A stretch of 60,195 bases of DNA, counting the filler, from Globobulimina sp. (Eukaryota): the NCBI GenBank assembly GCA_003354225.1. It is 8 parts of 8 records of this genome, joined end to end, with 100 filler letters (N's around TTAATTAATTAA, not from the genome) between each part and the next. Parts side by side here need not be neighbours in the genome. Positions count along the whole stretch, not along the records: positions 45,278 to 52,700 come from PIVH01000158.1; 7 more parts are not named here. The stretch is one strand, 5' to 3'. Made by a program: the position numbers and the translations under genes. Positions within the stretch are counted from its first letter, which is position 1, and every line of letters starts with the position of its first letter. The notes under the pieces are model-generated. The model did no database searches and had not been told where the DNA came from. It saw nothing but the letters and a program-made list of their open reading frames with translations. Shown piece after piece: positions 7,457-52,800 of the stretch.

Positions 7457-7556
7457 NNNNNNNNNNNNNNNNNNNNNNNNNNNNNNNNNNNNNNNNNNNN
7501 TTAATTAATTAANNNNNNNNNNNNNNNNNNNNNNNNNNNNNNNNNNNNNNNNNNNN
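7457..7556. other. Artificial contig linker
   Basis: 44 N + TTAATTAATTAA (stop codons in all frames) + 44 N; identical at seven places. Confidence 0.98.
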
Positions 7557-15011: not shown

Positions 15012-15111
15012 NNNNNNNNNNNNNNNNNNNNNNNNNNNNNNNNNNNNNNNNNNNNTTAATTAATTAANNNNNNNNNNNNNNNNNNNNNNNNNNNNNNNNN
15101 NNNNNNNNNNN
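15012..15111. other. Artificial contig linker
   Basis: 44 N + TTAATTAATTAA + 44 N. Confidence 0.98.
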
Positions 15112-22566: not shown

Positions 22567-22666
22567 NNNNNNNNNNNNNNNNNNNNNNNNNNNNNNNNNN
22601 NNNNNNNNNNTTAATTAATTAANNNNNNNNNNNNNNNNNNNNNNNNNNNNNNNNNNNNNNNNNNNN
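22567..22666. other. Artificial contig linker
   Basis: 44 N + TTAATTAATTAA + 44 N. Confidence 0.98.
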
Positions 22667-30115: not shown

Positions 30116-30215
30116 NNNNNNNNNNNNNNNNNNNNNNNNNNNNNNNNNNNNNNNNNNNNTTAATTAATTAANNNNNNNNNNNNNNNNNNNNNNNNNNNNN
30201 NNNNNNNNNNNNNNN
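30116..30215. other. Artificial contig linker
   Basis: 44 N + TTAATTAATTAA + 44 N. Confidence 0.98.
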
Positions 30216-35245: not shown

Positions 35246-36262
35246 ATGAAATCTAAAAAAGTACTTTTCGTATTTTTGATCATTGGAGTTGGTTTTTTTT
35301 TATTCATTTCTTTATACCTTTTCGGAACTGATGTATATCCGAATGCAGATATTGACTTCTTGCAAATTACTAGTGACAGTGCGTCGAATCCAATACAAAT
35401 TGAGAAAGAAAACAAAAAGTTACAGTTAATTCGACAAAATGGATGCGACAATAAATCATTAGAAAGGGAGAACTGCATTTGCGACTATGTCAATCTGAAA
35501 GGACTGCAAAAGAGCGGCACTTCATGGATGATTGCATCGTTGCATCAAATTCAAGGATATTTTTGTGAGAAACAGTTAGACATAGAAATATGTACAAAAC
35601 CATGGCATTTAGGTTCATACAATCGACATGATCTGGTGTTGCCGCACGAAATTGATAATGATCGCTTATTGCACCATTTTAAGAATAAAAATGAATTTTT
35701 GAATGAATTAAAATATAAAAGATTTTGTTCAATCACAGCTTTTCGAGATGTGAGAGATAGAAAGGTTTCCTGGTCATATTGGAATATAAAACAGAATAAA
35801 ACCATAATGAATGACACAAAGTTATTATATGAGCACATCAACAAAATGACAGTACGTCGATATAAGCAAAGCGTTGAACAATACAATAAATATTGGAATG
35901 TATTCAGAAATGCTGAATTGAGGGAACCAATGAAATTTTATAATTATTTTTATGATGATATGGTATTGGACACATTTGATGGAATTAAAAATATTTTATC
36001 ATTTATTGGCTTTTATAGTTTGCAGGAAATTGTTGTGACAGATAACGACATTGAAAATATTTTAAAAAAGATTACAAGTGATGCTTTGATAGAGTACGGT
36101 GCAAATATATTGTATAGAAAAGGGAAAATATGTGGATTTCATTCTGAATTAACTGCTGAAAACGCAAACATTATCAATACTCAAACTGCATATTATTTGA
36201 ACCAGGAATTGATCCAAAAGTTCAACAAAACATGCTTCATTCCTTCTGGCTCGGTCTCTTAA
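35246..36262 (+). CDS. Golgi-type membrane-anchored sulfotransferase
   Basis: N-terminal TM anchor; PAPS-binding motifs GLQKSGTSWM, FRDVRDRKVSW and RKG. Confidence 0.8.
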   Translation: MKSKKVLFVFLIIGVGFFLFISLYLFGTDVYPNADIDFLQITSDSASNPIQIEKENKKLQLIRQNGCDNKSLERENCICDYVNLKGLQKSGTSWMIASLHQIQGYFCEKQLDIEICTKPWHLGSYNRHDLVLPHEIDNDRLLHHFKNKNEFLNELKYKRFCSITAFRDVRDRKVSWSYWNIKQNKTIMNDTKLLYEHINKMTVRRYKQSVEQYNKYWNVFRNAELREPMKFYNYFYDDMVLDTFDGIKNILSFIGFYSLQEIVVTDNDIENILKKITSDALIEYGANILYRKGKICGFHSELTAENANIINTQTAYYLNQELIQKFNKTCFIPSGSVS

Positions 36263-36346: not shown

Positions 36347-37483
36347 ATGGGTAAATTGTTTCGGAATAAGAACAAGTTGGTATTGAAAATGTTATTAATC
36401 CAAATCACTGTGTTTGCAATAATCAGCATTGTCTCATTCTCAAATCCATATTGGATACACGTCGAAGACATTAATGATATAAAATTAGTATCTTCTGTGC
36501 AAGTTCCATCAATGAGAGATGCAAATTGTTCGACTGAATGGCGCAAACAACACCAAATTGAAATAGATAATCACACCTTCTTCAATTTGTTACACCCTTT
36601 ACTTTATAAATATGCTTGGAACAAAACACCAAAAGGAACCTTCACGTATTGGTTAAGCCACATTTATTTCAAAAACAGAGTGACGGATAAAGCGTATTTT
36701 GCAGATAAATATTTAATGAAACAATATATCTACGATTACAAACAAGAATATCCACAGTTTTCATTCCTTAATTCAGCTCAAATAATATATGATTTATCAC
36801 CAACAGGAACGTTAAGAAGAGCCAGCAATTTGTCATTGATGCGGCTGCAACAACAATATGGCGGATTTCTGGTGAAACCAAATCATTTTTCAGGTAAACA
36901 AATTATTGTTGCTGCAACTGATTCCATTTCGGAGATGTTAATTGAAAATATTACGCGTGAAACACGTTGGTGGTTTAACCATAAATATAGGATAAAATCA
37001 AACAAAGTAAACAGAGAGCCGTGGTATTCATTGATTGAGCCACACATATTTATAGAAGAAAAGTTAAATAATTTGACGGAATATAAAATTCATGTTTTCA
37101 ATTATCATGCTCTATTTTTGTATAACTATGAAAAAGGAGTTTCCAATGCATTTAATGTGTATGTGTTGCCGCAGTTTATTCTATCAAATGTGACCTGGGC
37201 GCGAGTCGCAGTGAGTTTGTCCGATGATAAACGACTCAAAAGACCGTCAAAAAAGAATGTAAAAGGAATGGTTGAATTTGCGGAACATTTTGCGAGGAGA
37301 GAACAAATTAAATATGTCCGCGTGGATTTGTATGTGGTCGGAGATAAGGTTTATTTCTCAGAGTTTACATTTGCGCCTATTTCAGGCACTGCTGTCATAT
37401 TACCGCTATCCTTTGATTATTTGTTGTATGACATATTATGCGATGATTCTCATTATCACGACATATATGATTATATATTGTAA
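36347..37483 (+). CDS. TupA-like ATP-grasp amide ligase with N-terminal membrane anchor
   Basis: Motifs ADKYLMKQYI, FLVKPNHFSG, EPWYSLIEPHIFIEEKL, EYKIHVFN, YVRVDLY and YFSEFTFAP.SG. Confidence 0.82.
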   Translation: MGKLFRNKNKLVLKMLLIQITVFAIISIVSFSNPYWIHVEDINDIKLVSSVQVPSMRDANCSTEWRKQHQIEIDNHTFFNLLHPLLYKYAWNKTPKGTFTYWLSHIYFKNRVTDKAYFADKYLMKQYIYDYKQEYPQFSFLNSAQIIYDLSPTGTLRRASNLSLMRLQQQYGGFLVKPNHFSGKQIIVAATDSISEMLIENITRETRWWFNHKYRIKSNKVNREPWYSLIEPHIFIEEKLNNLTEYKIHVFNYHALFLYNYEKGVSNAFNVYVLPQFILSNVTWARVAVSLSDDKRLKRPSKKNVKGMVEFAEHFARREQIKYVRVDLYVVGDKVYFSEFTFAPISGTAVILPLSFDYLLYDILCDDSHYHDIYDYIL

Positions 37484-37649: not shown

Positions 37650-37749
37650 NNNNNNNNNNNNNNNNNNNNNNNNNNNNNNNNNNNNNNNNNNNNTTAATTA
37701 ATTAANNNNNNNNNNNNNNNNNNNNNNNNNNNNNNNNNNNNNNNNNNNN
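37650..37749. other. Artificial contig linker
   Basis: 44 N + TTAATTAATTAA + 44 N. Confidence 0.98.
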
Positions 37750-38873: not shown

Positions 38874-41800
38874 TTATTTAGATAGTTTTCGATACAACGT
38901 TAATAAATATTTCCTCTCTGATGATTCAATCCTTTCCTTTTTTTTCATTTGAATATTTACAATAGGTGGAATAAATTTTGCTTTCTTCCACTCACACCAA
39001 CACCTATTACATATCCTTGTTCCTTTTCTTTTTGCAGATTCCCACTCCAATGGATGTTGATGTTTTTTAACAGGTATTTTCCACTCTGCTGTTTTCGTTG
39101 CAGTACAAACACAACAAACTCTACCAACCTTTATTTTATTTTGATACGATGGAAACGTACAGCATATCTTTTTATAAATCTGTTCGTTAGTCATTTCTCC
39201 TAATTTTAAACTGCAGTCAACAGTGGTACCATCCGGACATCGTCTTAATTTCGTTGCTGGTCCCCATAACTTCGCAAGTGGTATCAACGGTGGTATATTA
39301 TTATTGGATGGAGGAACAACTGTTGATGGCATGGTTGATGGGCTAATATTATCTCTTAAAACATATAAAGCTGTATCCCAGAAAACAGATGCATTTAACG
39401 AATGTAAATAAGAAATATTTTCATATGATAAAAGAGAATCGTTAAATTTAATGATTTTATTTTTTACACATAAATAAAAAAGCCAATGGCCAGTGTGCGA
39501 TGAATCACCAATATGAGAAGCAAACCCAAACAAATCGTATACACCGTTTAATTTGCTAAACTTTGAAACATCAATGGTTTTGTTCAATTTACATTTATTT
39601 CCTTTTTTATTAAATTTAAATTCATCAGATTTATCCTTAAATTCTTGTTGTTGGATATAATTTCGTTGAATATTTACTAACATATATTTTGATATTTCAA
39701 TTATTTGTAATTTAATGAATCTTTGATTTGATTCATCTTTTGTTTTTGTGTTAAAATATAAATTAAGTGCGCATTCAACATCATTTGCTGGTTGAATTAT
39801 GATATTTGACAATAACTCATTATTTTGAATTGCACGTTCATACCATTGTTGTGAACCATAATCACAAAATATTGTTTTTACTTTGAATAAAAATAAAGAT
39901 TCTAACTGTTTTGCATCTTTTGAATCAAACAATTCTGAAATTATTCTTTCTCGAATATGGTTAAACAAATCACCGGCATCACCCATTGCCTTCATATTAA
40001 ATAAATCTCCATCATATTTTGATATAAAATTAAAGAATGGTTTATTATTCACCAATGACACAGATGGGTTTGCCATTTCTTGGCAAATATGGCCAATTTG
40101 TGCAAAGTATGTGCATACAGGATATTGCATATAATCATTTATTAACTTTATCCTATATTCTGGGATAGCGTGTAGTATTTGGACAGCGGTATTTGCCCAA
40201 CAAATATCCATACACTCGTTTGGTAGGCCTGCAAAACCTGCAAAATGACAATTGATTTGTTTTAATGTGTTTAATTCTAATTTATTATAAATCGTCATTT
40301 GTTTATCATAAATAATATGGACAGACCGACTTATGTCTCTAAATTGTGAAAATTGAAGAAAAATCGAGCCATTACATACTGAGCATTCAAATACGCGTTG
40401 ATGTGATATATTAAACATATCTCTCTTACTTAATTGCGGTATGCATAAAACATGATAACCTGTTGCGCAAATATCACAATAAATGTTTTTTTCAGGATCT
40501 ATATCCAAATGATGATCACAAACGCATGGGTTTAAGGTTGAAAATATCACATTATCTCCGTTTTGTAAACATGACGATTTTAATTTGTATGACTCTCTGC
40601 ATCCTTTAATTAATTGCAACGCAGAATATAAATATTTCATTCTATTCACATTATCATTGTTTATTTCAGAACCTTTTACATCTTCACAACCATTGCCGTT
40701 ATCATTTGCGGTGGTTCTGCTGTCATTTCGTATAATTAATGGTCGATCAATACCATTGGACAGCGCAACAGTATCACTTACAATGGTTGCTTTAGATTGA
40801 ATATCATTTTGCAAACACGCGATTTCAGGTTCTAAATTATTTGGCGACGAATATATTGTCGAAATATCTTCATGAAATAACATTAAAATACCTTTTGCAA
40901 TTACGTCATTTTTAATAACTTCTTCAATTTGTTTGCATCTTTTAATGGCAGAATCTACGTATGTTTGTATATCATTCTTTAAATTTGTTTCTTTTTCATC
41001 ATACAACAAAATACTTTGTCTTATATTTTCAACCTTAATCTTCGACCACGCACTTTTCAATTCGGTAATAGGAATTGTCGGATATGACCAATTCATGATA
41101 ATCTGATTTATCACCACACAAAACGAATCCCATAACCACATATCTACAATATTGCATTCATTCGGAGTTAAACGTAGGTAATATACTTCACTTATCCAAT
41201 CTAATATCTTCTCTGGCTCTAAACATGTTGACATGAATATTTTTAATATCTTTACCTGTTCTGAACCTCGATTCCACAAACCACCTGTTTTAAACTCATC
41301 ATTTTTATATGCAATAACTCTGTTTAATGTCTCCAACAACATATTGTCATCAAAATCATCTAAATTTGGTGCTAAATTCTTTAAATATGATTGCAACAGT
41401 TTTATATTTTTAAACGACGTTGAATATAATGACGCACAGCCAGCAACAGATCCTAATGATGTTAATAAAAATTTGCAATGAAAAACAGCACTTTTCGAAG
41501 ACTCATTTTTCCATTTTGTTTTCGTGAAAGTCGGATCAAACAACATCATGTACCATTTACTATCAATGTACCACATTTTGATCAAATACCTTATTGTGTC
41601 TGCTTCTTTTGTCTCTGAATCTGATTCATCCGCAATATTATTTATAATAACACTTTTCAAAATCGTCTCAGTTGCGTTTTTCGATTTGGTTATACTTACA
41701 ATATCAGCAGATAGTTGCCGCATTTCATATGGTGTGTTAAGTTCATTTATAATTTCTGATAAATCACTCTCTAAATATGTCACATAATGTTGTAATAATA

Positions 41801-44800
41801 TATCATTTTTTTTAATGAAATGAAACTTCGAATTGAAATATTCCTTTTGATATTGTTTTGTTGTTGAGTTTTTTTTATTGTTTGCCAAGATATCAGATAA
41901 AATATCGATTGATTCACGTGCCAATTTGGGAGTAGTTTGAATGCCATAATATCTCGGTGCTAATGTGTCAAACGTCAATTCACTAAATTCTTTGTAATAT
42001 ACATTCACTTTGTGGTTAATATAACAAAAACTCATATCATCGTAGCCAGGGGCTTGTAACACAATTATTGGAATAAATAAATTTTTAATTATCACTGACG
42101 TATGTCCAACATACAATTGTTTCGCTTTTTGAAGGTTGTACACCGCACCGAAATCAAATACCCCTTTGTTTTGTTTGGCTAAATTTCTTTTAGATACCTT
42201 TGAGATATCACCCATTTCATAGGTTCTCCATTTTGATGATATTCTTTCATATTTACTTTTGGTTCGTTCTGCATTTAACTTTGTGATGTTTTTATGGCGG
42301 CTTTTGCGGTATTGATGTGTTTTCTTATGTTTTATAGCAACTATATGGGATGCTGTCGCATCCAAAGCTGATGTTAATTTGAAAAACACGTTCCATGGTG
42401 ATAACCTTTTGCCTACTTGTATTACCTTTTGGTTATGGTGATTTTCAATCCAATTCGTTGTTGTGTGGTTACGGAGTTGTGTATTAAAATGTTTCGATTG
42501 TGATTTTGATACTTTTAAAATAGATTTTACAACACTTAAATTTGTATATGCTTTTACAACCATATCTAATGCTTTATTTTCTTTGGCGTAAGGTTTAAAT
42601 GTTTTTATCCATTTATCTAATCTTTTTATTGCAATTGGTAATGATTGTTCATGAACAATATCAGTCATACTCTCTGAAAAGACCTTTCTTAAATTAGTTG
42701 GTAATTTTTTGGTCGCCGTTGATACCGCTCTAAGTTTATGAAGAACGTCATGCTGGATAAACTCTTCACTTTTTGGCGCTCCGGTAATTTGTAGTTGTTT
42801 AATTTTGGTTATATTTGCTTTATCCATTAATGTATGTATTAAAATATTTTGTTTTAACTCGTCCTCGAATTCATTCTGCTGAAAGGCACCAAACGCTATT
42901 TGTGCACCCATTACGTTGGCTTTATCCATATCATACAAAGTAAACCCGCGGTTTATAACATCATCGACATCATAGCCATACGTATTTTTTAATGTATACA
43001 AAAGAAATAAATAAAAGACAGTCATTATGGTATGATCCTCTTTTTTAATTATCGCATACATTATCGGTATCGCCTCGTTTAACTCACTTACCCATAACCC
43101 CATGTTCCAAAATTTATACGTATCTTTGACGATTTTATAGGTAGTATCACCAAAAAAAACCATTTGTACCATTTGGGCAAAAACATTGTCGTTTGTCATC
43201 ATTTGTAAATCTAATTGATCCAAACTAGGTTCTTGCCCAGTTTCAAATATTTTCTTCTCACCAAATAATTGAATTACATAACTCCATATATCCGGTGCCA
43301 TAAACATAACCACAGCGTTATCATCTGTCATTTCTTTATATAATATATAAGATTTTAACCTTTCTTCTTTCATTTGCCAGAATGATATAAATTCAACTGT
43401 TTGCACTCCGTATTTACGCTGCATTTTCGTCCTATGATATGCTATGGCGGCATTTAATCGATCTACACCATATTGAAAGTATGACTCAATTGTTGCTATT
43501 TGTATATAATGACCATCTTGATGTTGTACTGCTTTCGCTCTAATTTTTGAGCCAGTTTGTTCATATAAATTAAACTGTTGCTGCAACCAAATCAGTGACG
43601 AAGGTAATGGGCTAATTCTCGCAGTTGTATGGCAATATGAGCTATGGTGATTCAACACAAATAATAACACAGAAATATCTCCGTTTCGTGGCGAATAAAA
43701 ATTACCTTCAGCTGTTCCCCAAATCAAATCACATTTGTAATATGCTTTAGTTTCATAGCACTTTGTACATATTTCAGAATTCATTAATACTTCATCTGAA
43801 TGGTTCTGTCTGTTTTTATGCTTGGCTGGTGAGGCAATAAATGCTAATTCACAATCTGTATTAACACACAAAACCATTCCTGGGCAATAATAAATACACA
43901 ATTTATTACCATATTTTTTGGTGATGAGGTTTTTGCTAAATGGGAAAAAATTAAAATGATCACTGTCTCTTTTCGATATTAAGATGCATACATTCCCGTC
44001 TTTTGTGCCAAGCAAAGCAAATGCGCGTACAATTAATAATTGCCTGTTAATTTCAGAACTCGGGTTCATGTTCACTTCACACATAAATTCAGTTGGGCGT
44101 GCTAATTTAATTAAACCTTGAATATACACTACCTCTCCCTTTTTACTTTTTCTTTTTTGATTTCTTTTTTGAATTGAAATATTTATCTGAAACTCATTTC
44201 TTTTTGGCTTCACACTAAAACATGGAAAATGTGGATCGTTTTGCAGTTTTATTTTGAAAAAAGGATTCGATTCATTTATATCGGTGTCTGTATGTCTTTT
44301 ATATGCAACGGTATGAGGCGAATCCCATTTGGTTCTAATATAGGTATCTGATGCATTTATAATATTTTTGGTGACACTACGTGAACCAACACCATTTACG
44401 ATTTCATATTTATTATTTTTAATATAATTATTTACCAAATGAAAATATTGTAATTCTTCATCTTTTGCCATTATACAATTCTTTTGTATATACGCACGCA
44501 CCACTTGTTCAAACTGTTCCTGGCTTGTGGTGTTATATAAATAAATGAACTTTTGTACTGTTAATGGAATACCAACGCTCACATAGGAGCCAGCTGTATA
44601 TCTAATTTGATAATAACTATGTAATAAATGCTGTAACTTTTTAATTAAATGTAACATGACTTTTTTCCAGTGTGTGTTGCTTTGTTTCTTGTGACAAATC
44701 TTATCTGTAATTATTACTAATTTAATATTTTCATGCAACTTTGAAATAACATCTTGGTGATCATACATTGAATCTTTAATAATCTGCTTTGATCCACCTC

Positions 44801-45176
44801 GGATATTAATATGGTTTGGATCAACCAAAACAACGTCATCACTAGAAACATCAATGCCGCTGATCATGCATTCTGTTGTATCATTTGATTGATTTGTAGA
44901 CTCTGATAAATCTGACAAATCATACTCTAAAAATGCGCTTAAATCGTCTGATTCTGCACACCTTGCCGATGTTCGTTGTGTTACTTTGTTTGTAAATGAT
45001 GTGGTTTCTTGTGAAGGCATGGTTGTACCACTCAGTGTGTGTCTGTTTACAGATATTTCTGACACAGTTTCAACGGTTCGTGTGGTTGTATCTTGTGGTG
45101 GTGTCATTTTTACCTTTGTACGAACTGTTACTGGGTGTGTGGTTGTATATGATCTGACTACACCTGATGATGTCAT
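38874..45176 (-). CDS. Mutator-like DDE transposase fused to PHD finger, USP (C19) peptidase and GATA-like zinc finger
   Basis: DDE motifs FFGDTTYK, LYDMDKANVMGA and TTNWIENHH. PHD CVC...CDICATGYHVLC...CSVC. USP Cys box GLPNECMDICWANTAVQIL and His box SHIGDSSHTGHW...FNDS. C-terminal CCVCTATKTAEWK...ICNRC. 2100 codons without introns; start lies at the contig edge. Confidence 0.8.
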   Translation of the reverse strand: MTSSGVVRSYTTTHPVTVRTKVKMTPPQDTTTRTVETVSEISVNRHTLSGTTMPSQETTSFTNKVTQRTSARCAESDDLSAFLEYDLSDLSESTNQSNDTTECMISGIDVSSDDVVLVDPNHINIRGGSKQIIKDSMYDHQDVISKLHENIKLVIITDKICHKKQSNTHWKKVMLHLIKKLQHLLHSYYQIRYTAGSYVSVGIPLTVQKFIYLYNTTSQEQFEQVVRAYIQKNCIMAKDEELQYFHLVNNYIKNNKYEIVNGVGSRSVTKNIINASDTYIRTKWDSPHTVAYKRHTDTDINESNPFFKIKLQNDPHFPCFSVKPKRNEFQINISIQKRNQKRKSKKGEVVYIQGLIKLARPTEFMCEVNMNPSSEINRQLLIVRAFALLGTKDGNVCILISKRDSDHFNFFPFSKNLITKKYGNKLCIYYCPGMVLCVNTDCELAFIASPAKHKNRQNHSDEVLMNSEICTKCYETKAYYKCDLIWGTAEGNFYSPRNGDISVLLFVLNHHSSYCHTTARISPLPSSLIWLQQQFNLYEQTGSKIRAKAVQHQDGHYIQIATIESYFQYGVDRLNAAIAYHRTKMQRKYGVQTVEFISFWQMKEERLKSYILYKEMTDDNAVVMFMAPDIWSYVIQLFGEKKIFETGQEPSLDQLDLQMMTNDNVFAQMVQMVFFGDTTYKIVKDTYKFWNMGLWVSELNEAIPIMYAIIKKEDHTIMTVFYLFLLYTLKNTYGYDVDDVINRGFTLYDMDKANVMGAQIAFGAFQQNEFEDELKQNILIHTLMDKANITKIKQLQITGAPKSEEFIQHDVLHKLRAVSTATKKLPTNLRKVFSESMTDIVHEQSLPIAIKRLDKWIKTFKPYAKENKALDMVVKAYTNLSVVKSILKVSKSQSKHFNTQLRNHTTTNWIENHHNQKVIQVGKRLSPWNVFFKLTSALDATASHIVAIKHKKTHQYRKSRHKNITKLNAERTKSKYERISSKWRTYEMGDISKVSKRNLAKQNKGVFDFGAVYNLQKAKQLYVGHTSVIIKNLFIPIIVLQAPGYDDMSFCYINHKVNVYYKEFSELTFDTLAPRYYGIQTTPKLARESIDILSDILANNKKNSTTKQYQKEYFNSKFHFIKKNDILLQHYVTYLESDLSEIINELNTPYEMRQLSADIVSITKSKNATETILKSVIINNIADESDSETKEADTIRYLIKMWYIDSKWYMMLFDPTFTKTKWKNESSKSAVFHCKFLLTSLGSVAGCASLYSTSFKNIKLLQSYLKNLAPNLDDFDDNMLLETLNRVIAYKNDEFKTGGLWNRGSEQVKILKIFMSTCLEPEKILDWISEVYYLRLTPNECNIVDMWLWDSFCVVINQIIMNWSYPTIPITELKSAWSKIKVENIRQSILLYDEKETNLKNDIQTYVDSAIKRCKQIEEVIKNDVIAKGILMLFHEDISTIYSSPNNLEPEIACLQNDIQSKATIVSDTVALSNGIDRPLIIRNDSRTTANDNGNGCEDVKGSEINNDNVNRMKYLYSALQLIKGCRESYKLKSSCLQNGDNVIFSTLNPCVCDHHLDIDPEKNIYCDICATGYHVLCIPQLSKRDMFNISHQRVFECSVCNGSIFLQFSQFRDISRSVHIIYDKQMTIYNKLELNTLKQINCHFAGFAGLPNECMDICWANTAVQILHAIPEYRIKLINDYMQYPVCTYFAQIGHICQEMANPSVSLVNNKPFFNFISKYDGDLFNMKAMGDAGDLFNHIRERIISELFDSKDAKQLESLFLFKVKTIFCDYGSQQWYERAIQNNELLSNIIIQPANDVECALNLYFNTKTKDESNQRFIKLQIIEISKYMLVNIQRNYIQQQEFKDKSDEFKFNKKGNKCKLNKTIDVSKFSKLNGVYDLFGFASHIGDSSHTGHWLFYLCVKNKIIKFNDSLLSYENISYLHSLNASVFWDTALYVLRDNISPSTMPSTVVPPSNNNIPPLIPLAKLWGPATKLRRCPDGTTVDCSLKLGEMTNEQIYKKICCTFPSYQNKIKVGRVCCVCTATKTAEWKIPVKKHQHPLEWESAKRKGTRICNRCWCEWKKAKFIPPIVNIQMKKKERIESSERKYLLTLYRKLSK

Positions 45177-45177
45177 T

Positions 45178-45277
45178 NNNNNNNNNNNNNNNNNNNNNNN
45201 NNNNNNNNNNNNNNNNNNNNNTTAATTAATTAANNNNNNNNNNNNNNNNNNNNNNNNNNNNNNNNNNNNNNNNNNNN
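45178..45277. other. Artificial contig linker
   Basis: 44 N + TTAATTAATTAA + 44 N. Confidence 0.98.
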
Positions 45278-45652
45278 GAGATAATTAAGAGATAATTGTA
45301 GATAATTAGGCTTAATTATAGATAATATGAGGTAATGACAGGTAATTAAGGTAATTGGAGGTAATCAGAGATAATTCAACTAATTAGAGATAATTGGAGA
45401 TAATCGGAGATAATTAAGATAATCTGAGATAATATGTGATAATTAAGATAATGGGAGATAATGGAAGCTAATTGAGATAATTGAAGATAAATATAGATAA
45501 TTGATGGTCGATCGCAACTTATATAGATAATTGGCGATAATTAAGATAATAGGAGATAATTAGAGCTAATTAAGATAATTGGAGATAATTAGGATAATTA
45601 AAAGATAATTAAAGATGATTAAAGATAATTAAAGGATAATTAACCGATAAAT
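45278..45652. repeat. Degenerate ~9-10-bp tandem array (consensus ~GAGATAATTA)
   Basis: More than 30 consecutive variants with a GATAAT/GGTAAT core, running off the contig start. Confidence 0.9.
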
Positions 45653-45669
45653 AAAAGCATCTTCTTCCT

Positions 45670-45772
45670 TTTGCTGTGGCATCGTTGACTTTGCTAGTTA
45701 GCGGTTGCCCCATGTTATGATACATATCGTCTAATCTATTAGTACCCAAGGAAAAAAGTTGGATGTTTTTAA
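45670..45772 (-). repeat. ~100-bp gene-downstream element, copy 1
   Basis: Differs from 46640-46742 at 4 of 103 positions; begins ~67 nt after the stop of 45839-46513. Confidence 0.9.
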
Positions 45773-45838
45773 ACGACAATTTACTGACAGGAAACTAAAT
45801 TTTAAACAAATAAAAAAAAAGAAAAAATCAATTTAAAA

Positions 45839-46513
45839 TCAACATTTTTGCTGATATCCGATGGTATCTACTGGTGTGAGTTTGCGATCATATTCATCGA
45901 GATCGATAGTCCATCGATTCACAAAAGCATCAAAAGCAAAACCTTCATCTTCCGATGATGTTGGTGTGCCGCCGTCGTTCCGATGATGTCGAGAATCCTC
46001 AATAACATTTATCCAATCAACGCGCATCACCACAGTTGGTACTTGACACGTTTTTGTAAATTTCACTTTTAAAGTCCCGGGTCGTAATGGTGGTGACTTT
46101 TCACTTTTCGTTTGATAACATAATCTCCTGACGCTAACCTCACCATCGCATTCCGTTGATATTTCAAGCGTAACTTTAAAAAACAAAAAATATCGTTTCC
46201 ATGTTGCAATAGGTAAATCATGATCTGCATAAATCTCCAAAATATGCGCATCACCAACATCATCACCACAATACATTTGTATAAATTTATTTAAAACTAA
46301 CGCATTTGAGTTGTTTATTAATGTGTCTCTTTCATCGGCAGGTATAGACCAATTTCTGTCAGCTCCAATCCTTCTGGCTGCTGTAACCATATCCAACATC
46401 AGTTTAATAAACATGCAGACTACAAAAGGAGAGCTATTCAATCGCTGCTTCTTTTTTGGTGGTTGTAGATGTGTATTCTGTTGTAGCTTTCGTTTGTGTC
46501 GGTTAGCTGACAT
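45839..46513 (-). CDS. Hypothetical protein with N-terminal NLS (PPKKKQR), transposon accessory gene
   Basis: 224-aa ATG ORF bracketed by the two 103-bp direct repeats. Confidence 0.65.
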   Translation of the reverse strand: MSANRHKRKLQQNTHLQPPKKKQRLNSSPFVVCMFIKLMLDMVTAARRIGADRNWSIPADERDTLINNSNALVLNKFIQMYCGDDVGDAHILEIYADHDLPIATWKRYFLFFKVTLEISTECDGEVSVRRLCYQTKSEKSPPLRPGTLKVKFTKTCQVPTVVMRVDWINVIEDSRHHRNDGGTPTSSEDEGFAFDAFVNRWTIDLDEYDRKLTPVDTIGYQQKC

Positions 46514-46639
46514 TATTCTTTATGGATTTACTCAAAAAAAAACTTACGACTAAGCAACTAAATGCGTTAATCTGTTGAGATATCTACATTCTATACCATA
46601 TAAATATCTCGCCATCGAACCCAATCTCACTTTTAATAA

Positions 46640-46742
46640 TTTGCTGTGGCATCGTTGATTTTGCTAGTTAGCGGTTGCCCCATGTTATGATACATATCGT
46701 CTAATCTATCATTACTCAAGGAAAAAAGTTGGATGTTTTTAA
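46640..46742 (-). repeat. ~100-bp gene-downstream element, copy 2
   Basis: Direct repeat of 45670-45772 at 970-bp spacing; begins ~83 nt after the transposase stop. Confidence 0.9.
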
Positions 46743-46824
46743 TGATTACTAACTATTGAATTTAGGACAGATTGAATTAAATAATAATCCCTACAAACAC
46801 AATAAACACAAAATCACTCTATAA

Positions 46825-48675
46825 CTACAAAGTCGATAACATATCATTCAATTTTTCATATTCATTCTCCCAGCATAAAAACAAACATTGGATGTAGTTC
46901 CAAACGACAATTTCTTTTTTTCTATCCATATTTTCAAATAGGTCCCATATGCTTTTCAATGCCTCACACCGGTTACGTCTATCCGGAGAGCGTTTTCTTA
47001 AAAAGCCATTCACTTCAAACCCTTCATATCTGCCTGCGATGACAGCCATCCATTGTTTCAAATTCCAACAAAAATCCCACCAATTCTTACGCACACCTAA
47101 ATCGAGCAATGCCTTCTTATTCCAACCCTCGCAGAAATTATTGTCCATAACATAAGATCCTTGACAATTTAATAATTTCAATCCGAATTTCTGCAGCCAA
47201 ATAGGCTTCAAATAATCATTATAAAAATCACGAAAGGCCCCCCTACTTTTACCAGTTAATCCTCTCCATGCTTTTCTCTTTATTAAATCCGCTCCAAATG
47301 CAGCACAATCCGGATGAATACCGCGAAGGCATTCAAAATATCGAATAAATTGGCGGAACAAATCATCATGGAAATACAATCCAATGTAACCACGTTGTTT
47401 CATGTTTTTATTAATTGCATTAATAAAATGAAATCCACAGCCGTCATCTTTCAATACATCAATGTGTTGCGACTGAGACAGTGCATTATGTTCACCCATG
47501 CTAAAATCACCCATTAATCTTACCGGTTTGTTGGTTAAACACTGAAGCGGTTGACCTGAAAGCTTCTCAGCATATCGCACCAAACAAATTATTATCTCGT
47601 TAATCGATTCTGCTGTGTGGTCTTGCATTAAACATACGAAAGCAGGAAAATTTTCATCCTGTAATTCAGTCGATTGAGTCTCGAATAGACCGTGCAAGAG
47701 CCAGCTCTGTTCCCATCCTTTGCACCTATTTAAATTTGGACATACGCGGCACAATTGATCGAATCCAATCAGTGAGCAATTCTTTAATATTTTATAACTG
47801 CTTCGATGCCCAAAAATTATTAATGACCCGTTTATGCGCATATAAATGACAAACTTACATTTTTTGTCTGCTCCATTGGAAGTAATTCGAATTAATTTCA
47901 ATAACTCGTTTATTTTTGTTAATTTTAACATTGCATCATTTATCTGTAATTGTCCCTTTACGCATTTCTGCTCCTGACTTAAGCTCTTATCTTGGAATAA
48001 TTCATCCATATTTATAGTACAATCCACAGATGCTGTCATCTGCATTCCCTTCATGAGTTGCCTTAATTTCTGCGTGCAATGCGCATAGAAATTTTCCGTC
48101 CAAATTCGGTTATCTTTCAAACTTTGTGCCGCTGATTCGCGACATGTCGGCAACGGTGGGTAGGCTGAGTCATATTGTCCCATTTGCTTTTTAATAGCAG
48201 TCGTTTTTCGCTGTAGTTGTGCGACTGATTGGAATTCATTTAATTGCGGATTCTGCAACATCTGGCTTTCGCAGGCCCCCCGCGACGATTTTCCTTGCAA
48301 TATGGCCTCTTGCGTGGCAATGGTTTGTATATCTTGTATATGCTTTGCGTTCGGCGTGATCTTCTTATGATAACACCGCTTGTGTTCCTGGCCGATGTCG
48401 TTATCATGCATTGAATAGAACGTGCAGTTCCATATAGATCCTAATGGTCTGAATGGTCTGGCTCGAATATAATTTTTGCATTGACTTACATAACAGTTCA
48501 ATTGGATCTCTCCTTTTCTTAATAAATGCGGCTGATACGACGAGATTTTGTATCGGTTGTACTCGTGTACAGCATACTTATCATTTAACCATTGAACCTG
48601 GTATTTAGTTTCATGTGTTATCTTTGGTGGGTTTCTGTTGCCGTCGGCCATTGGACCGTTTGTTGCGTTTTTCAT
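46825..48675 (-). CDS. Mutator-like (MULE) DDE transposase
   Basis: LIGFDQLCRVCP (D1), LMGDFSMGEHNAL (D2), GCGFHFINAINKN (CxxH) and DNNFCEGWNK (E). N-terminal C-x4-C...H...H zinc-finger-like region. Confidence 0.85.
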   Translation of the reverse strand: MKNATNGPMADGNRNPPKITHETKYQVQWLNDKYAVHEYNRYKISSYQPHLLRKGEIQLNCYVSQCKNYIRARPFRPLGSIWNCTFYSMHDNDIGQEHKRCYHKKITPNAKHIQDIQTIATQEAILQGKSSRGACESQMLQNPQLNEFQSVAQLQRKTTAIKKQMGQYDSAYPPLPTCRESAAQSLKDNRIWTENFYAHCTQKLRQLMKGMQMTASVDCTINMDELFQDKSLSQEQKCVKGQLQINDAMLKLTKINELLKLIRITSNGADKKCKFVIYMRINGSLIIFGHRSSYKILKNCSLIGFDQLCRVCPNLNRCKGWEQSWLLHGLFETQSTELQDENFPAFVCLMQDHTAESINEIIICLVRYAEKLSGQPLQCLTNKPVRLMGDFSMGEHNALSQSQHIDVLKDDGCGFHFINAINKNMKQRGYIGLYFHDDLFRQFIRYFECLRGIHPDCAAFGADLIKRKAWRGLTGKSRGAFRDFYNDYLKPIWLQKFGLKLLNCQGSYVMDNNFCEGWNKKALLDLGVRKNWWDFCWNLKQWMAVIAGRYEGFEVNGFLRKRSPDRRNRCEALKSIWDLFENMDRKKEIVVWNYIQCLFLCWENEYEKLNDMLSTL

Positions 48676-48733
48676 CCCCGAGAGCCAAAGTTTTTTTGAG
48701 TATTATCTAAAATCACACAAAACAACTCCAATC

Positions 48734-50458
48734 ATGTCTGGATATCGTCGATATTCCAACAAAGCCAAAACCACTGAAGAAGATTATGGGCACAAGTATG
48801 ACATTTTTAAAGTCACATCGGACACGTTCAAGACTGTGAGCAAGATGGAGACGTGGGTAGGCAATGCCGATTGGTTCGATGATGATTGGTTACACGATGG
48901 TACCGGCAATAGAGGGAAGGGAAAAAAATTGAATAAGAAAAGGATGAAGGCAATGATAGAAAGTAAATGTTGTATACGATTAAAAAAATTATGTAAAGAC
49001 AATTACAAACCATTTATGTACGCTATAGACGGAGTTGCCGACGAGGAAGATGGATATGCCCGTATGGCGAAATGGTTCAAAGAAGAATCTGATTCTTTTT
49101 CGTTTCGACCAGGGGTCAAAGACATTGAGGGTTGGGAGGAGAAGGGACTTACTCCAGCGTCATTATTTCAGGGCATTAAGGACCGTGATACCAGCATTAG
49201 GAAGACATTAGATATCACGACGGGGGAATGGAATGGATTACGTTCCACTGTTCAGAAGGTTGTCCGGGGTGACATAAAATACTATGACTCCGATGACGAA
49301 GACGACGACGGGAGTGACGACGAGGACGATGATCAAGATTTGAAACAGGACGATATTAGCAACGATAATAATAATAATCGCAACAAAAAAAGAAAAAAAA
49401 AACGTCGTTACGAGCCGGACATTGGTCAAACATCACCGTCGAAAACATCGGATAATCGCCGTATCAGCAACGTCGGTGGTATGATTGGTTTATCACCCCT
49501 CAGAAAAAGGAGGAAAATGACCTCAGAGAGGGCACTTCATATCATGGGTTTTGTCGAGAGGAAGGAAAGTGAGTCTGCTTCCAATCATTTCCAAAGGAGC
49601 AAATCTCAAGTTCAACATCCGTTTTTCGTCCTGAGAAACAAGCCTGGTCCAATGATTATCCATACGGTTGTTGAAAAGAGCAAAGATTTGCCGGTTTATA
49701 TTGCATCGACGGGTGCGAAGTATTCCTACGATGAGGAATCGCCATGGCATAGGCATGATATGTTATTGCTGAAAAATCTTATGATGAGAGTTCACGGTTT
49801 AAAGAAACTCCATCGTAGGATCGTGGCCCAGCAGGATGCAATTCAAAATGTGTTCATCAATAAGCGTTTTGGGCAGAATGATATGCGGTGTCCGGGTGGT
49901 GCAGAATTTGAGATGGCATGCGTTATTGGTGAGAAACTGGGCCTGTTGAAGCGAATTGTGGAAGAAAAAAATGCATTTAAGGCCAACAAAAAGTTAATCG
50001 AAGAGGAGGCTTTTCGAAAAGAGGATTATGAGCTCGGTCTGTGGAGCAATGTTTATGAGAAAAAAAATCGTTTACCGAGGTTTGTTCCTTTTTTTTTCGG
50101 TCATATTTCTGAGGTATACCTGTTTACACTCAGATCTGCGGTCCAATTGGTTGCATTGAAAGAGCAAAAAAAATTGGTCCCCCATAAAACCATGTGGTAT
50201 TTTCGAGTGGATCTATTTAAGTTATTGGCCAAATTACAGGAGACCGATGTGGATAAATATGCAGCAACGAAAATGATATGGAAGCAATTTGGCGTCTTGA
50301 CGTGGATAAAGCCATATATTAATACTTTTTTTGAAGGGCAGATGCAGAAAGCGATTGACTTTGGTTTGGTTAAAGAGGAAGAAAGGGATAAAAGTCATTT
50401 CTTGTCACAGGATGTATTGGATGAACAGGATGACGAAGATTATATGAATTTTTTATAA
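48734..50458 (+). CDS. Hypothetical nuclear protein with acidic tract and NLS, transposon accessory gene
   Basis: First ATG at 48734, divergent from the transposase start with only ~58 bp between; DSDDEDDD tract and KKRKKKRR. Confidence 0.75.
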   Translation: MSGYRRYSNKAKTTEEDYGHKYDIFKVTSDTFKTVSKMETWVGNADWFDDDWLHDGTGNRGKGKKLNKKRMKAMIESKCCIRLKKLCKDNYKPFMYAIDGVADEEDGYARMAKWFKEESDSFSFRPGVKDIEGWEEKGLTPASLFQGIKDRDTSIRKTLDITTGEWNGLRSTVQKVVRGDIKYYDSDDEDDDGSDDEDDDQDLKQDDISNDNNNNRNKKRKKKRRYEPDIGQTSPSKTSDNRRISNVGGMIGLSPLRKRRKMTSERALHIMGFVERKESESASNHFQRSKSQVQHPFFVLRNKPGPMIIHTVVEKSKDLPVYIASTGAKYSYDEESPWHRHDMLLLKNLMMRVHGLKKLHRRIVAQQDAIQNVFINKRFGQNDMRCPGGAEFEMACVIGEKLGLLKRIVEEKNAFKANKKLIEEEAFRKEDYELGLWSNVYEKKNRLPRFVPFFFGHISEVYLFTLRSAVQLVALKEQKKLVPHKTMWYFRVDLFKLLAKLQETDVDKYAATKMIWKQFGVLTWIKPYINTFFEGQMQKAIDFGLVKEEERDKSHFLSQDVLDEQDDEDYMNFL

Positions 50459-50560
50459 ATCTGAATTTAATATGAATTTAAATGATTTTAATTTGTTTGT
50501 TTAATAACTTTAATAAATTTGATTTTTAATTTGTTTGTTTTGTAGCTGATATACCTCGGC

Positions 50561-50660
50561 AAACCACACCAACTTTTTTCTAGAACTAGCTGAGTATCTG
50601 AAGATATGTTTTCGAATGTCAAAAGAGCGATATGTAGCAAACAACACGGTGCTACAAAAA
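50561..50660 (+). repeat. ~100-bp gene-downstream element, diverged copy 3 (inverted relative to copies 1 and 2)
   Basis: Boxes ccaacttttttc-N22-gatatgt-N25-tagcaaa-N4-acgRtgcYaca occur with the same spacing as in the reverse complement of copies 1 and 2. Confidence 0.75.
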
Positions 50661-50725
50661 AAACAAAGTATTACACAGAAACACAAAAACCTTCGCCAAA
50701 TTATTTATACAGAAACAGAAAAGTA

Positions 50726-52607
50726 TTATTTCGGCTTTTTCAATGGTGGCCAATAGTCAGTTTGCAATGATCTTTTGTTTGATGATCCTCTTGTTGATGA
50801 TCTTATGGTTAATTTTGGTAACGGCCGCGCTCCACTCCCGACGGCGGCTTTTTTCCGCCTTATTGCTGCGTTTTTCTCATTTCTCTTTCTTATTCTTTGT
50901 ATTTGCCGATTGGCGCGATTGCCATTCCCATTGCCATTCCCATTCCCATTGCCATTCCCATTCCCATTCCCATTCCCATTCCCATTCCCATTCCCATTCC
51001 CATTTAGAATCTGTACATCGTCGTCCGCCTGTACATCGTCTTCTATCTGTACATCGTCTTCTATCTGTACATCGTCGTTACCCAGATTTTTAGAGCATCG
51101 ACCCAAAAAATTTTGCTTCTCCTCCGACGAGTCATCCCAAACCAGGTCCAGTGAATCACTATTATCGCCACCATTATTACCGTCCTTCTGTTCATCATTA
51201 TTATCGCCACCATCCGGTTCCTCATCATCACTTACGTCATCATTCTCATCATCATCCTCATCGTCATCGTCATCGTCATCCCCATCCGCTTCATTTTTAT
51301 TTTTATTTTTATCCTCATCATCCGCTTCATCGTCATCTGAATCACTGTCATCGTCATTTGAATCGATATTCAGGTATGGGGTTATTGTTGATTGCACGGG
51401 CACCATCGAAGACCAGTCCACAGTGTTCAGCACATTGTCGTACCCCCAATAGTCGTCGTCACTGTAGATCTGCAAATCAGGATTAACTAAATACGCATCC
51501 GTTATACTCCCAACGGTGCGGGTTAACTTCTTTTGTATGTCATTGACGGCGGCATCAACATTCGTACGATCATTTGCAGCCCATTTTTTAGTATTGCGTT
51601 TGTTGGCGATGTTTTTCTCGATACTCGCCGCCAATGAACGATCGAATTTGTGGATTGCAGGCATATTACTCGCATAGGCAAATATTACCCCGTAAGGGAG
51701 TGCAGTGTGCATTATCATGCAACCGAAAAATATTTCTGTTTTTCCATCGGCGGTGGTTGTTGTAATCACTATATATATAAATATATTACACGCATATTCG
51801 CACAAAAAATAAAAACATACGCGGGTTTAGCGAACGCGGGTTGCCATCGGTACCCTCGCGGAGAGTGAGCTGCAAATGTGAATTCTTCCATGACATCGAT
51901 GAATGGCTTAGACTATTACTTATTTTGAGTAGTCCAAGTAAGCCGGACATCGAGGTTTTATATAATTTATTTTCTTGTACCTCTTCCCCATTATAATCAC
52001 AGATGGAATGATAAATGGCCTTTGATTTCGGCAATACCAACGCCCATAAAGGTCGGATATGCCAATTGTCGTTTCGAATTAATGTCCAAATTCCTTGACC
52101 TTTCGGAATGATTTTGATTAATAATCCGCCGGAAATTAACACTGGGTTCATTGATTTTTTTGTTTTGTTTTTTTTGTTCGTATTATACTTCTCTATTTGT
52201 TTCCATTCTTTCACAGATTGTTTTCTTATCACCGTAACTTTATCAATAAATTCTTTTTTCGTGATATACTCATCACTTTCAGACCATATTTTCCTGGCCA
52301 ATGCAATTTGGCTGCTGTTCCTAAGAACCCACTGATAAACATGTTTAATAGTCAATTCTGGATTGGTTGCAGCCGCGATCCGCTTCATATTCACGAACAC
52401 TTGCGGCATGAGGGAGGATATACTGCCGTTCCCTTTCGATTTATCGAAAAACAATTCCACGGTGCGCAATGTCGTTTTTGTCACAAACTTTCTCAAGGTA
52501 TTGACGGTCGCGCGTTTCTCTATCCAAACAGGCAAATCCCAATCATTTTCATCTTTTTCTTTTTTTGCTTCTTCCGCGAACTTACTCCGGGTCGTCGTCG
52601 TTGCCAT
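50726..52607 (-). CDS. Two-exon hypothetical protein with long acidic tract, DDVQIE repeats and (GN)n repeat
   Basis: ORFs 51786-52607 and 50726-51805 join in frame through intron 51769-51820 (gtatgt...tatag). Confidence 0.7.
50920..51078. repeat. Coding repeats: (CCCATT)n microsatellite and 18-bp repeats
   Basis: The hexamer run encodes (GN)n on the minus strand; ctgtacatcgtcttctat-type units encode DDVQIE. Confidence 0.85.
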
Positions 52608-52700
52608 ACTCGACGGATTATTGTTTCTGTATCATTTGGGTGGCAGACGTTTAGAAGCGGTCGACAGACGTTCAAGAGACGCCGAGAAACATACAGTTTG

Positions 52701-52800
52701 NNNNNNNNNNNNNNNNNNNNNNNNNNNNNNNNNNNNNNNNNNNNTTAATTAATTAANNNNNNNNNNNNNNNNNNNNNNNNNNNNNNNNNNNNNNNNNNNN
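52701..52800. other. Artificial contig linker
   Basis: 44 N + TTAATTAATTAA + 44 N. Confidence 0.98.

Follow-up and report, generated by a model that had tools for sequence, protein, structure and literature searches.

The window analysed here is a 60,195-nt stretch of DNA from Globobulimina sp. (GenBank assembly GCA_003354225.1), in which eight separate contigs of 7.39–7.46 kb each are joined in order of falling length. The subject of this analysis is a repeat of about 100 nt, all three copies of which lie within a single piece (PIVH01000158.1; positions 45278–52700, bounded by linkers at 45178–45277 on the left and 52701–52800 on the right), together with a gene predicted to encode a divergent transposase of the Mutator-like element (MULE) type. 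Open reading frames (ORFs) of 224, 616, 574, 330 and 273 codons were called on this contig with the standard code. The features of the locus, and the linkers that separate the contigs, are as follows, with coordinates counted along the window.

45278–45643, plus strand: 10-mer array, about 37 tandem units of consensus AGATAATTGA, all oriented alike and continuing up to the end of the contig
45670–45772, minus strand: repeat copy 1, 99/103 identical to copy 2; nhmmer E 9e-30 with the three-copy profile
45839–46513, minus strand: 224-aa ORF, lying between copies 1 and 2, in a 970-bp unit
46640–46742, minus strand: repeat copy 2, 99/103 identical to copy 1 and in direct orientation to it
46825–48675, minus strand: 616-aa ORF, predicted divergent Mutator-like DDE transposase
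48676–48733, no strand: spacer of 58 nt between two divergent start codons
48734–50458, plus strand: 574-aa ORF, family unassigned, divergent from the transposase gene
50559–50661, plus strand: repeat copy 3, inverted and diverged, 56/103 ungapped matches to reverse-complemented copy 1
50726–52607, minus strand: spliced gene, the 273-aa and 330-aa ORFs joined in a 609-codon frame
7457–7556, 15012–15111, 22567–22666, 30116–30215, 37650–37749, 45178–45277 and 52701–52800: seven artificial linkers, N44-TTAATTAATTAA-N44; any feature seeming to cross one of them is an artefact

Copies 1 and 2 start 970 nt apart, with a gap of 867 nt between them, and four boxes recur in the copies at identical spacing, in the order CCAACTTTTTTC-N22-GATATGT-N25-TAGCAAA-N4-ACGRTGCYACA. 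An earlier inspection of this DNA, made without database searches and referred to below as the sequence-only reading, had recorded four differences between copies 1 and 2, and an inverted third copy in which the four boxes keep their spacing; both descriptions were found to be exact. The repeat is real and beyond chance. None of 1000 dinucleotide-preserving shuffles of positions 46743–52700 reached the 56 matches observed between copies 1 and 3 (the best match averaged 45.3 and had a maximum of 51), so the third copy survives the comparison with shuffled sequence on which the earlier inspection had proposed that it should stand or fall. Over both strands of the whole window, the next-best ungapped match to copy 1 after copy 3 scored 47 (mean 27.5, standard deviation 5.0). 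The positions that copy 3 shares with copy 1 are grouped, forming runs of 12, 7 and 7; of 20000 permutations, 338 produced a run of 12 or longer and 89 produced at least three runs of 7 or longer. None of the four columns at which copies 1 and 2 differ is shared with copy 3 (P 0.04). The outer boundary is common to all three copies, and the innermost box, which is the best kept, carries a run of six T residues. Local alignment detected no similarity extending beyond the 103 nt, what it returned being limited to the 16-nt box region and to AT-rich matches of low complexity, and the three-copy profile identified no fourth copy in the window, the best other match having an E-value of 3.8, with none in the seven other contigs.

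The placement of the copies relative to the genes is regular. Counted from the stops at 45839, 46825 and 50458, copies 1, 2 and 3 begin 66, 82 and 100–102 nt beyond, respectively, with the same orientation relative to the gene throughout, in good agreement with the constant orientation and the distances of about 67–103 nt given previously. Copy 2, at its 82 nt past the transposase stop, also precedes the start codon (ATG) of the 224-aa ORF by 126 nt; copy 3 is some 65 nt from the stop of the convergent spliced gene, which lies on the outer side of the copy; and copy 1 is 20–30 nt from the 10-mer array.

Judged from its sequence relationships, the 616-aa ORF is a divergent MULE DDE transposase that retains its catalytic residues. 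At curated cut-offs, Pfam assigned no family to any of the five contig ORFs, and no transposase family was recognised directly in these ORFs or in seven members of the 616-aa family; this direct search yielded SDA1_HEAT at an E-value of 0.0049, below cut-off, and TNP-like_GBD at an E-value of 0.05 in one family member. The protein has four close relatives, at 46–51% identity, three belonging to transcriptomes of two foraminifera, Bolivina argentea and Nonionella stella, and the fourth to a 2-kb NCBI contig, and the family is multi-member in foraminiferal transcriptomes. A profile of the family retrieved 72 proteins among 1.84 billion representatives, the closer members being foraminiferal or from ENA metagenome contigs. 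Thirty-two of the 72, chosen as the longer and more distant ones, were scanned with Pfam: ten pass the curated cut-off for the MULE family (PF10551), six list MULE below the cut-off, and 16 list nothing. Comparison of the 616-aa family with the ten PF10551 passers using hhalign gave a probability of 99.9% and an E-value of 4e-32 over 288 columns; the comparison set was picked by the query profile and its Pfam labels are independent. The alignment pairs GFDQL with DGTF, MGDFS with MxDFE, CGFHF with GCxFHF and NNFCEGWN with TNNxxE, and residues D306, D390, C413-x2-H416 and E516 align with the MULE catalytic pattern. The PF10551 labels and the hhalign match, with its aligned catalytic residues, together lead us to assign the 616-aa ORF as a MULE DDE transposase, and lend support to the transposon setting that the sequence-only reading had supposed.

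A C..C..H..H pattern close to the N-terminus is conserved in all five of the full-length sequences (5/5), and may represent a zinc-finger DNA-binding domain as is common in MULE transposases. An AlphaFold model of the 616-aa protein made with seven sequences (predicted local distance difference test score, pLDDT, of 45.9) was too poor for fold comparison, and a PDB-sequence profile search returned a sole match, to DOCK2 (E 0.085), which was taken as chance. No related transposase locus was confirmed in metagenome and viral contigs, and the box pattern had 0 matches in viral contigs.

The transposase and 574-aa ORFs read outward from a 58-nt centre, which is presumed from its position to be a shared promoter region, and copies 2 and 3 form the only notable inverted pair around both genes, delimiting a unit of 4,022 bp (46640–50661). 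The simplest reading of the repeat is that its copies are transposon end repeats. With moderate confidence, we take copies 2 and 3 to be the dissimilar terminal inverted repeats (TIRs) of a 4.0-kb two-gene MULE, the boxes to be putative transposase-binding sites, and copy 1 to be a duplicated left end. Copy 2 would then be the left TIR and copy 3 the right one; the boxes would be the sites at which the transposase binds, probably via its N-terminal C..C..H..H domain, along with the terminus that is cleaved, the spacers between them would be free to drift, and the two ends would be dissimilar (‘heteromorphic’). Copy 1 would be a recent duplicate of the left end, either outer or solo, giving an element of three ends, two of them on the left with the 224-aa gene in between, which could in principle be mobile as a 4.0-kb or a 5.0-kb unit.

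Terminal inverted repeats are the most ordinary reading of a ~100-nt inverted pair around a MULE transposase, although they were absent from the sequence-only reading. The length of the copies falls inside the range of 14–500 bp reported for MULE TIRs, which carry transposase-binding sites (PMC6446971). Because the two genes read outward, their 3′ ends fall in or next to the repeats, which would largely explain the position of the copies 3′ of a gene, in the same orientation, without a dedicated terminator; for the same reason, the observation that the copies are always so placed says little. The boxes are not enriched downstream of the 27 other long ORFs in the window, hence they are no general gene-end signal of this genome. 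Weak support for the copies as element ends comes from the intron of 52 nt that interrupts the gene beyond copy 3, in contrast to the three ORFs inside, which are uninterrupted.

Conservation at fixed spacing had been attributed beforehand either to protein binding or to RNA structure, and the first of these fits what was observed, whereas the second does not. No stable fold was detected for the three copies on either strand (single-sequence z-scores −1.58 to +0.53), and RNAalifold returned no conserved fold on either strand, the consensus being weak: of its 14 pairs on one strand about 3 are broken in some copy, as are about 10 of the 23 on the opposite strand. The proposed dyad, TAGCA-N10-TGCYA, is present, but pairs perfectly in copy 3 only, where the stem has 7 bp; four of the seven pairs are possible in copies 1 and 2. 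Rfam searches (E up to 5) returned weak small nucleolar RNA (snoRNA) and small RNA noise that overlapped the core of no copy, one snoRNA-model match (E 2.5) reaching the last 6 nt of copy 2. As no RNA or DNA fold is conserved, the blocky pattern of conservation fits sequence-specific protein binding rather than a fold.

Two other readings of the repeat were considered and were not borne out. A miniature inverted-repeat transposable element (MITE) or short interspersed nuclear element (SINE), which the sequence-only reading had itself named as the alternative that would overturn it, does not match the data: the 103-nt unit has no terminal repeats of its own, its ends being mutually unlike, there is no tRNA-like part (0 genes by ARAGORN), no target-site duplication (TSD) was found at copies 1 and 3, word depth is not raised, and there are no further copies in the window, the seven other contigs included. 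A shared exon was likewise discarded; a single frame of copy 1 is open, but copy 3 has a stop in that frame.

Several observations weigh against the copies being MULE ends. No TSD of 6–12 nt (0–2 mismatches) was found within 12–30 nt of the boundaries for copies 1 and 3 or for copies 2 and 3; MULE target duplications are 8–11 bp (PMC6446971; PMC3310237), and each of the multi-TIR MULEs of PMC3310237 had a TSD. The two ends are 54% identical, far under the level of typical MULE TIRs, and single-sequence nhmmer searches rate the match between copies 1 and 3 as marginal (E 0.78, 0.4 and 0.62), although the two are mutually the top non-self match. The genes of maize MuDR converge inward from promoters in its TIRs, whereas those described here diverge from the 58-nt centre and end at the repeats. 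Of three sequencing runs of one sample, a single DNA run contains the contig, and in it word depth is 13–15 over the unit as well as over its flanks; with depth equal in the two, nothing points to additional near-identical copies or to mobility. Finally, the evidence comes from a single locus on one 7.4-kb contig, and the element could be larger than this contig, in which case the copies would be internal and the 10-mer array could form part of the true end. Since the TSD is a defining feature of MULEs, what we propose is that the copies work like MULE ends, which is short of a proven mobile MULE.

Logan contigs matched to this contig extend at least 124 nt leftward and about 2.6 kb rightward of it, and contain no joints or variants. 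One Logan contig has 32 nt in common with the sequence just outside copy 2 (46610–46641), is similar but diverged before this segment, and is unrelated after 46641; it may represent a paralogous locus without the element, diverging at the outer edge of copy 2. This point of divergence, like the outer boundary common to the three copies, fits the reading of the copies as element ends. At the other end of the contig, just upstream of the start of the spliced gene, word depth is about 22 at 52629–52685 versus about 14 elsewhere, and Logan contigs branch on both sides. A short repeat at this position probably ended the assembly contig.

The position of the copies also invites a different explanation, the main alternative, in which the repeat would be an element-specific 3′-end module, that is, a termination/polyadenylation signal or a signal of the 3′ untranslated region, copied behind each gene and read by a sequence-specific factor. 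All copies are indeed 66–102 nt past a stop with one orientation to the gene, the spliced gene, as a fourth transcription unit, likewise stops about 65 nt from copy 3, on its other side, the T6 run sits in the innermost and best-kept box, and the columns shared with copy 3 are free of the four differences between copies 1 and 2. The orientation, however, is an automatic result of having two divergent genes and, for copy 1, had an even chance of arising, and the boxes show neither enrichment after the 27 other ORFs of the window nor a conserved RNA fold. Moreover, eukaryotic nuclear 3′-end signals are normally short, and such a module leaves the presence of a transposase gene inside the inverted pair unexplained. 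On the sequence features available, we consider this explanation unlikely.

A second alternative, which we rate as distinctly unlikely, is that the copies are functionless leftovers of duplication, with copies 1 and 2 arising by recent local duplication or gene conversion and copy 3 being an ancient relative in decay, as might be left at the ends of a MULE that was domesticated or has long been immobile. The missing TSD, the depth equal to that of the flanks, and the 54% identity of the ends are all in keeping with this, as is a 9/10 direct match, TTTAATAATT/TTTAATGATT (46632–46641 and 46738–46747), that straddles copy 2. This match partly overlaps the element's own end, which is common to copy 1, and may reflect microhomology at a junction or simply chance, the sequence being AT-rich. 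Under neutral decay to 54%, however, scattered matches would be expected, yet these occur in runs of 12, 7 and 7, of a kind seldom seen on permutation (338/20000 and 89/20000 as above), and the transposase ORF is intact with all its catalytic residues present.

We regard it as very improbable that the copies are internal sites for an element-encoded regulator, for example an anti-silencing protein resembling VANC of the Arabidopsis VANDAL elements, with the true ends located beyond the contig. Blocky conservation is to be expected of such sites, the 574-aa and 224-aa element ORFs are without assigned function, and VANC proteins bind short motifs in the non-coding parts of MULEs (PMC5735166). 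The VANC targets described there are dense same-orientation arrays of a single motif, whereas the repeat has four different boxes, once each; no Pfam family, VANC-related or other, is present in any ORF; and the 10-mer array at 45278–45643 suits the description of VANC targets better than does the ~100-nt element. The suggestion that the repeat is a site for an anti-silencing protein finds no support for the ~100-nt element itself, the array being the better candidate. Least credible of all is an integron-like recombination site that builds gene-plus-site cassettes, as the sequence-only reading had also envisaged: a duplicated end that encloses a gene is certainly seen, the 970-bp unit consisting of a gene then one site, beside another site, but Pfam found no tyrosine or serine recombinase among the five ORFs of the contig, leaving the transposase as the only candidate enzyme, the dyad is perfect in copy 3 only, a single such unit is seen, and no joint skipping the 970-bp unit occurs in Logan contigs, a weak point since these drop rare variants.

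The 574-aa ORF is a possible accessory gene of the element; it has no homologue, no Pfam family at the curated cut-off and no Atlas match. No paralogy was found among the five ORFs or with the other contigs, the best result being a weak match of the 574-aa ORF (E 0.001). For the 224-aa ORF there is likewise no homologue and no Pfam family, and its single-sequence AlphaFold2 model (pLDDT 34.9) was unusable. In the spliced gene, a minus-strand intron of 52 nt (51769–51820; GTATGT...TATAG) joins the 273-aa and 330-aa ORFs; the encoded protein is acidic and of low complexity (NG runs, D/E runs) with no Pfam family, and the 273-aa ORF gave no usable Atlas match. We read this gene as a flanking host gene.

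The 10-mer array is either a flanking minisatellite or a part of the element. Variant 10-mer arrays are present elsewhere in the same sample, and the commonest longer unit variant has ten letters identical to those that open a primer published for the first part of the maize MuDR TIR (PMC2563033). This match of letters is probably a coincidence, although an odd one beside a Mutator-type transposase. A dense motif array of one orientation in non-coding MULE sequence is also reminiscent of the targets of VANC.

The other pieces of the window contain eukaryotic gene fragments with ERG4/ERG24, CH domain, Sel1, ShK, peptidase S28, ThiF and FAA hydrolase matches. On one of these contigs, an ORF with a TupA-like ATP-grasp domain (36347–37483), which we take to be a mostly bacterial family, adjoins a sulfotransferase ORF (35246–36262), and the two could be a transferred gene pair or contamination. 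On a further contig, a minus-strand open frame of 2100 codons without a Pfam family (38874–45176) fills nearly the whole contig and reaches its end.

Little is known of foraminiferal genomes, and Pfam has no direct recognition of this transposase. If the copies are MULE ends, they would be the first termini seen for a Mutator-type family so far only found in foraminifera and metagenome contigs; the boxes at fixed spacing in dissimilar ends would mark the bases that the transposase needs, and the duplication of one end, with an intact gene enclosed, would illustrate cargo pick-up outside plants. A private 3′-end signal, if that is what the repeat provides, would be more unusual than transposon ends. 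A more speculative combination of the two, which we think improbable, is that of a portable ‘gene-end plus transposon-end’ module, in which a foraminiferal MULE duplicates its terminal repeat to enclose whole genes, yielding nested 4.0-kb and 5.0-kb versions, with the 10-mer array as a further protein-binding platform. Each added gene would then arrive with a ready 3′ end and a transposase-binding site, providing a modular route by which a DNA transposon could grow a multi-gene cargo.

Comparison with known systems would place this locus among described MULE layouts. Maize MuDR, a two-gene autonomous MULE with TIRs of about 215 bp, resembles it in having a CxxH DDE transposase accompanied by a second gene and, if the copies are ends, long end repeats and a size of 4–5 kb; it differs in that the 616-aa transposase is too divergent for direct detection as MULE by Pfam. 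The VANDAL elements, which are non-TIR MULEs (PMC5735166; PMC6446971), share degenerate ends and short protein-bound motifs (both putative in the present case) and an adjacent dense array in one orientation, whereas at this locus no VANC-like protein was detected and the ~100-nt element has no single-motif array.

A further parallel is offered by the three-TIR MULEs of plants. Elements with an additional solo TIR at one end have been described, one of which carries transposase-like sequence (PMC3310237), and types 3 and 6 of this series (Ferguson and Jiang 2012) likewise have an extra direct copy of the end on one side, with similarity limited to the ~100-nt TIR and no duplication around the inner copy. 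Such elements are recognised by an extra TIR with similarity over at least 100 bp and no TSD round the inner copy; here, the extra copy is 99/103 identical and there is no clean TSD at copy 2. The plant elements had TSDs and matching paired TIRs, whereas the present locus has no TSD and an opposite end of 54% identity, and it contains an intact 224-aa ORF between the left copies, 867 nt apart. The dissimilarity of the two ends has its own precedent in maize, where Mu elements with dissimilar TIR pairs still transpose (Hunter, McCarty and Koch 2023; PMC10401008); these heteromorphic elements also have two unlike TIRs that share transposase-binding features, both of which are putative here. The maize heteromorphs are multi-copy and belong to known multi-copy clades, compared with one locus, at a copy number that looks like one, in this study. 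The most likely identity is one that is ordinary for its setting, namely the known three-TIR/heteromorphic MULE layout, in a poorly sampled protist lineage.

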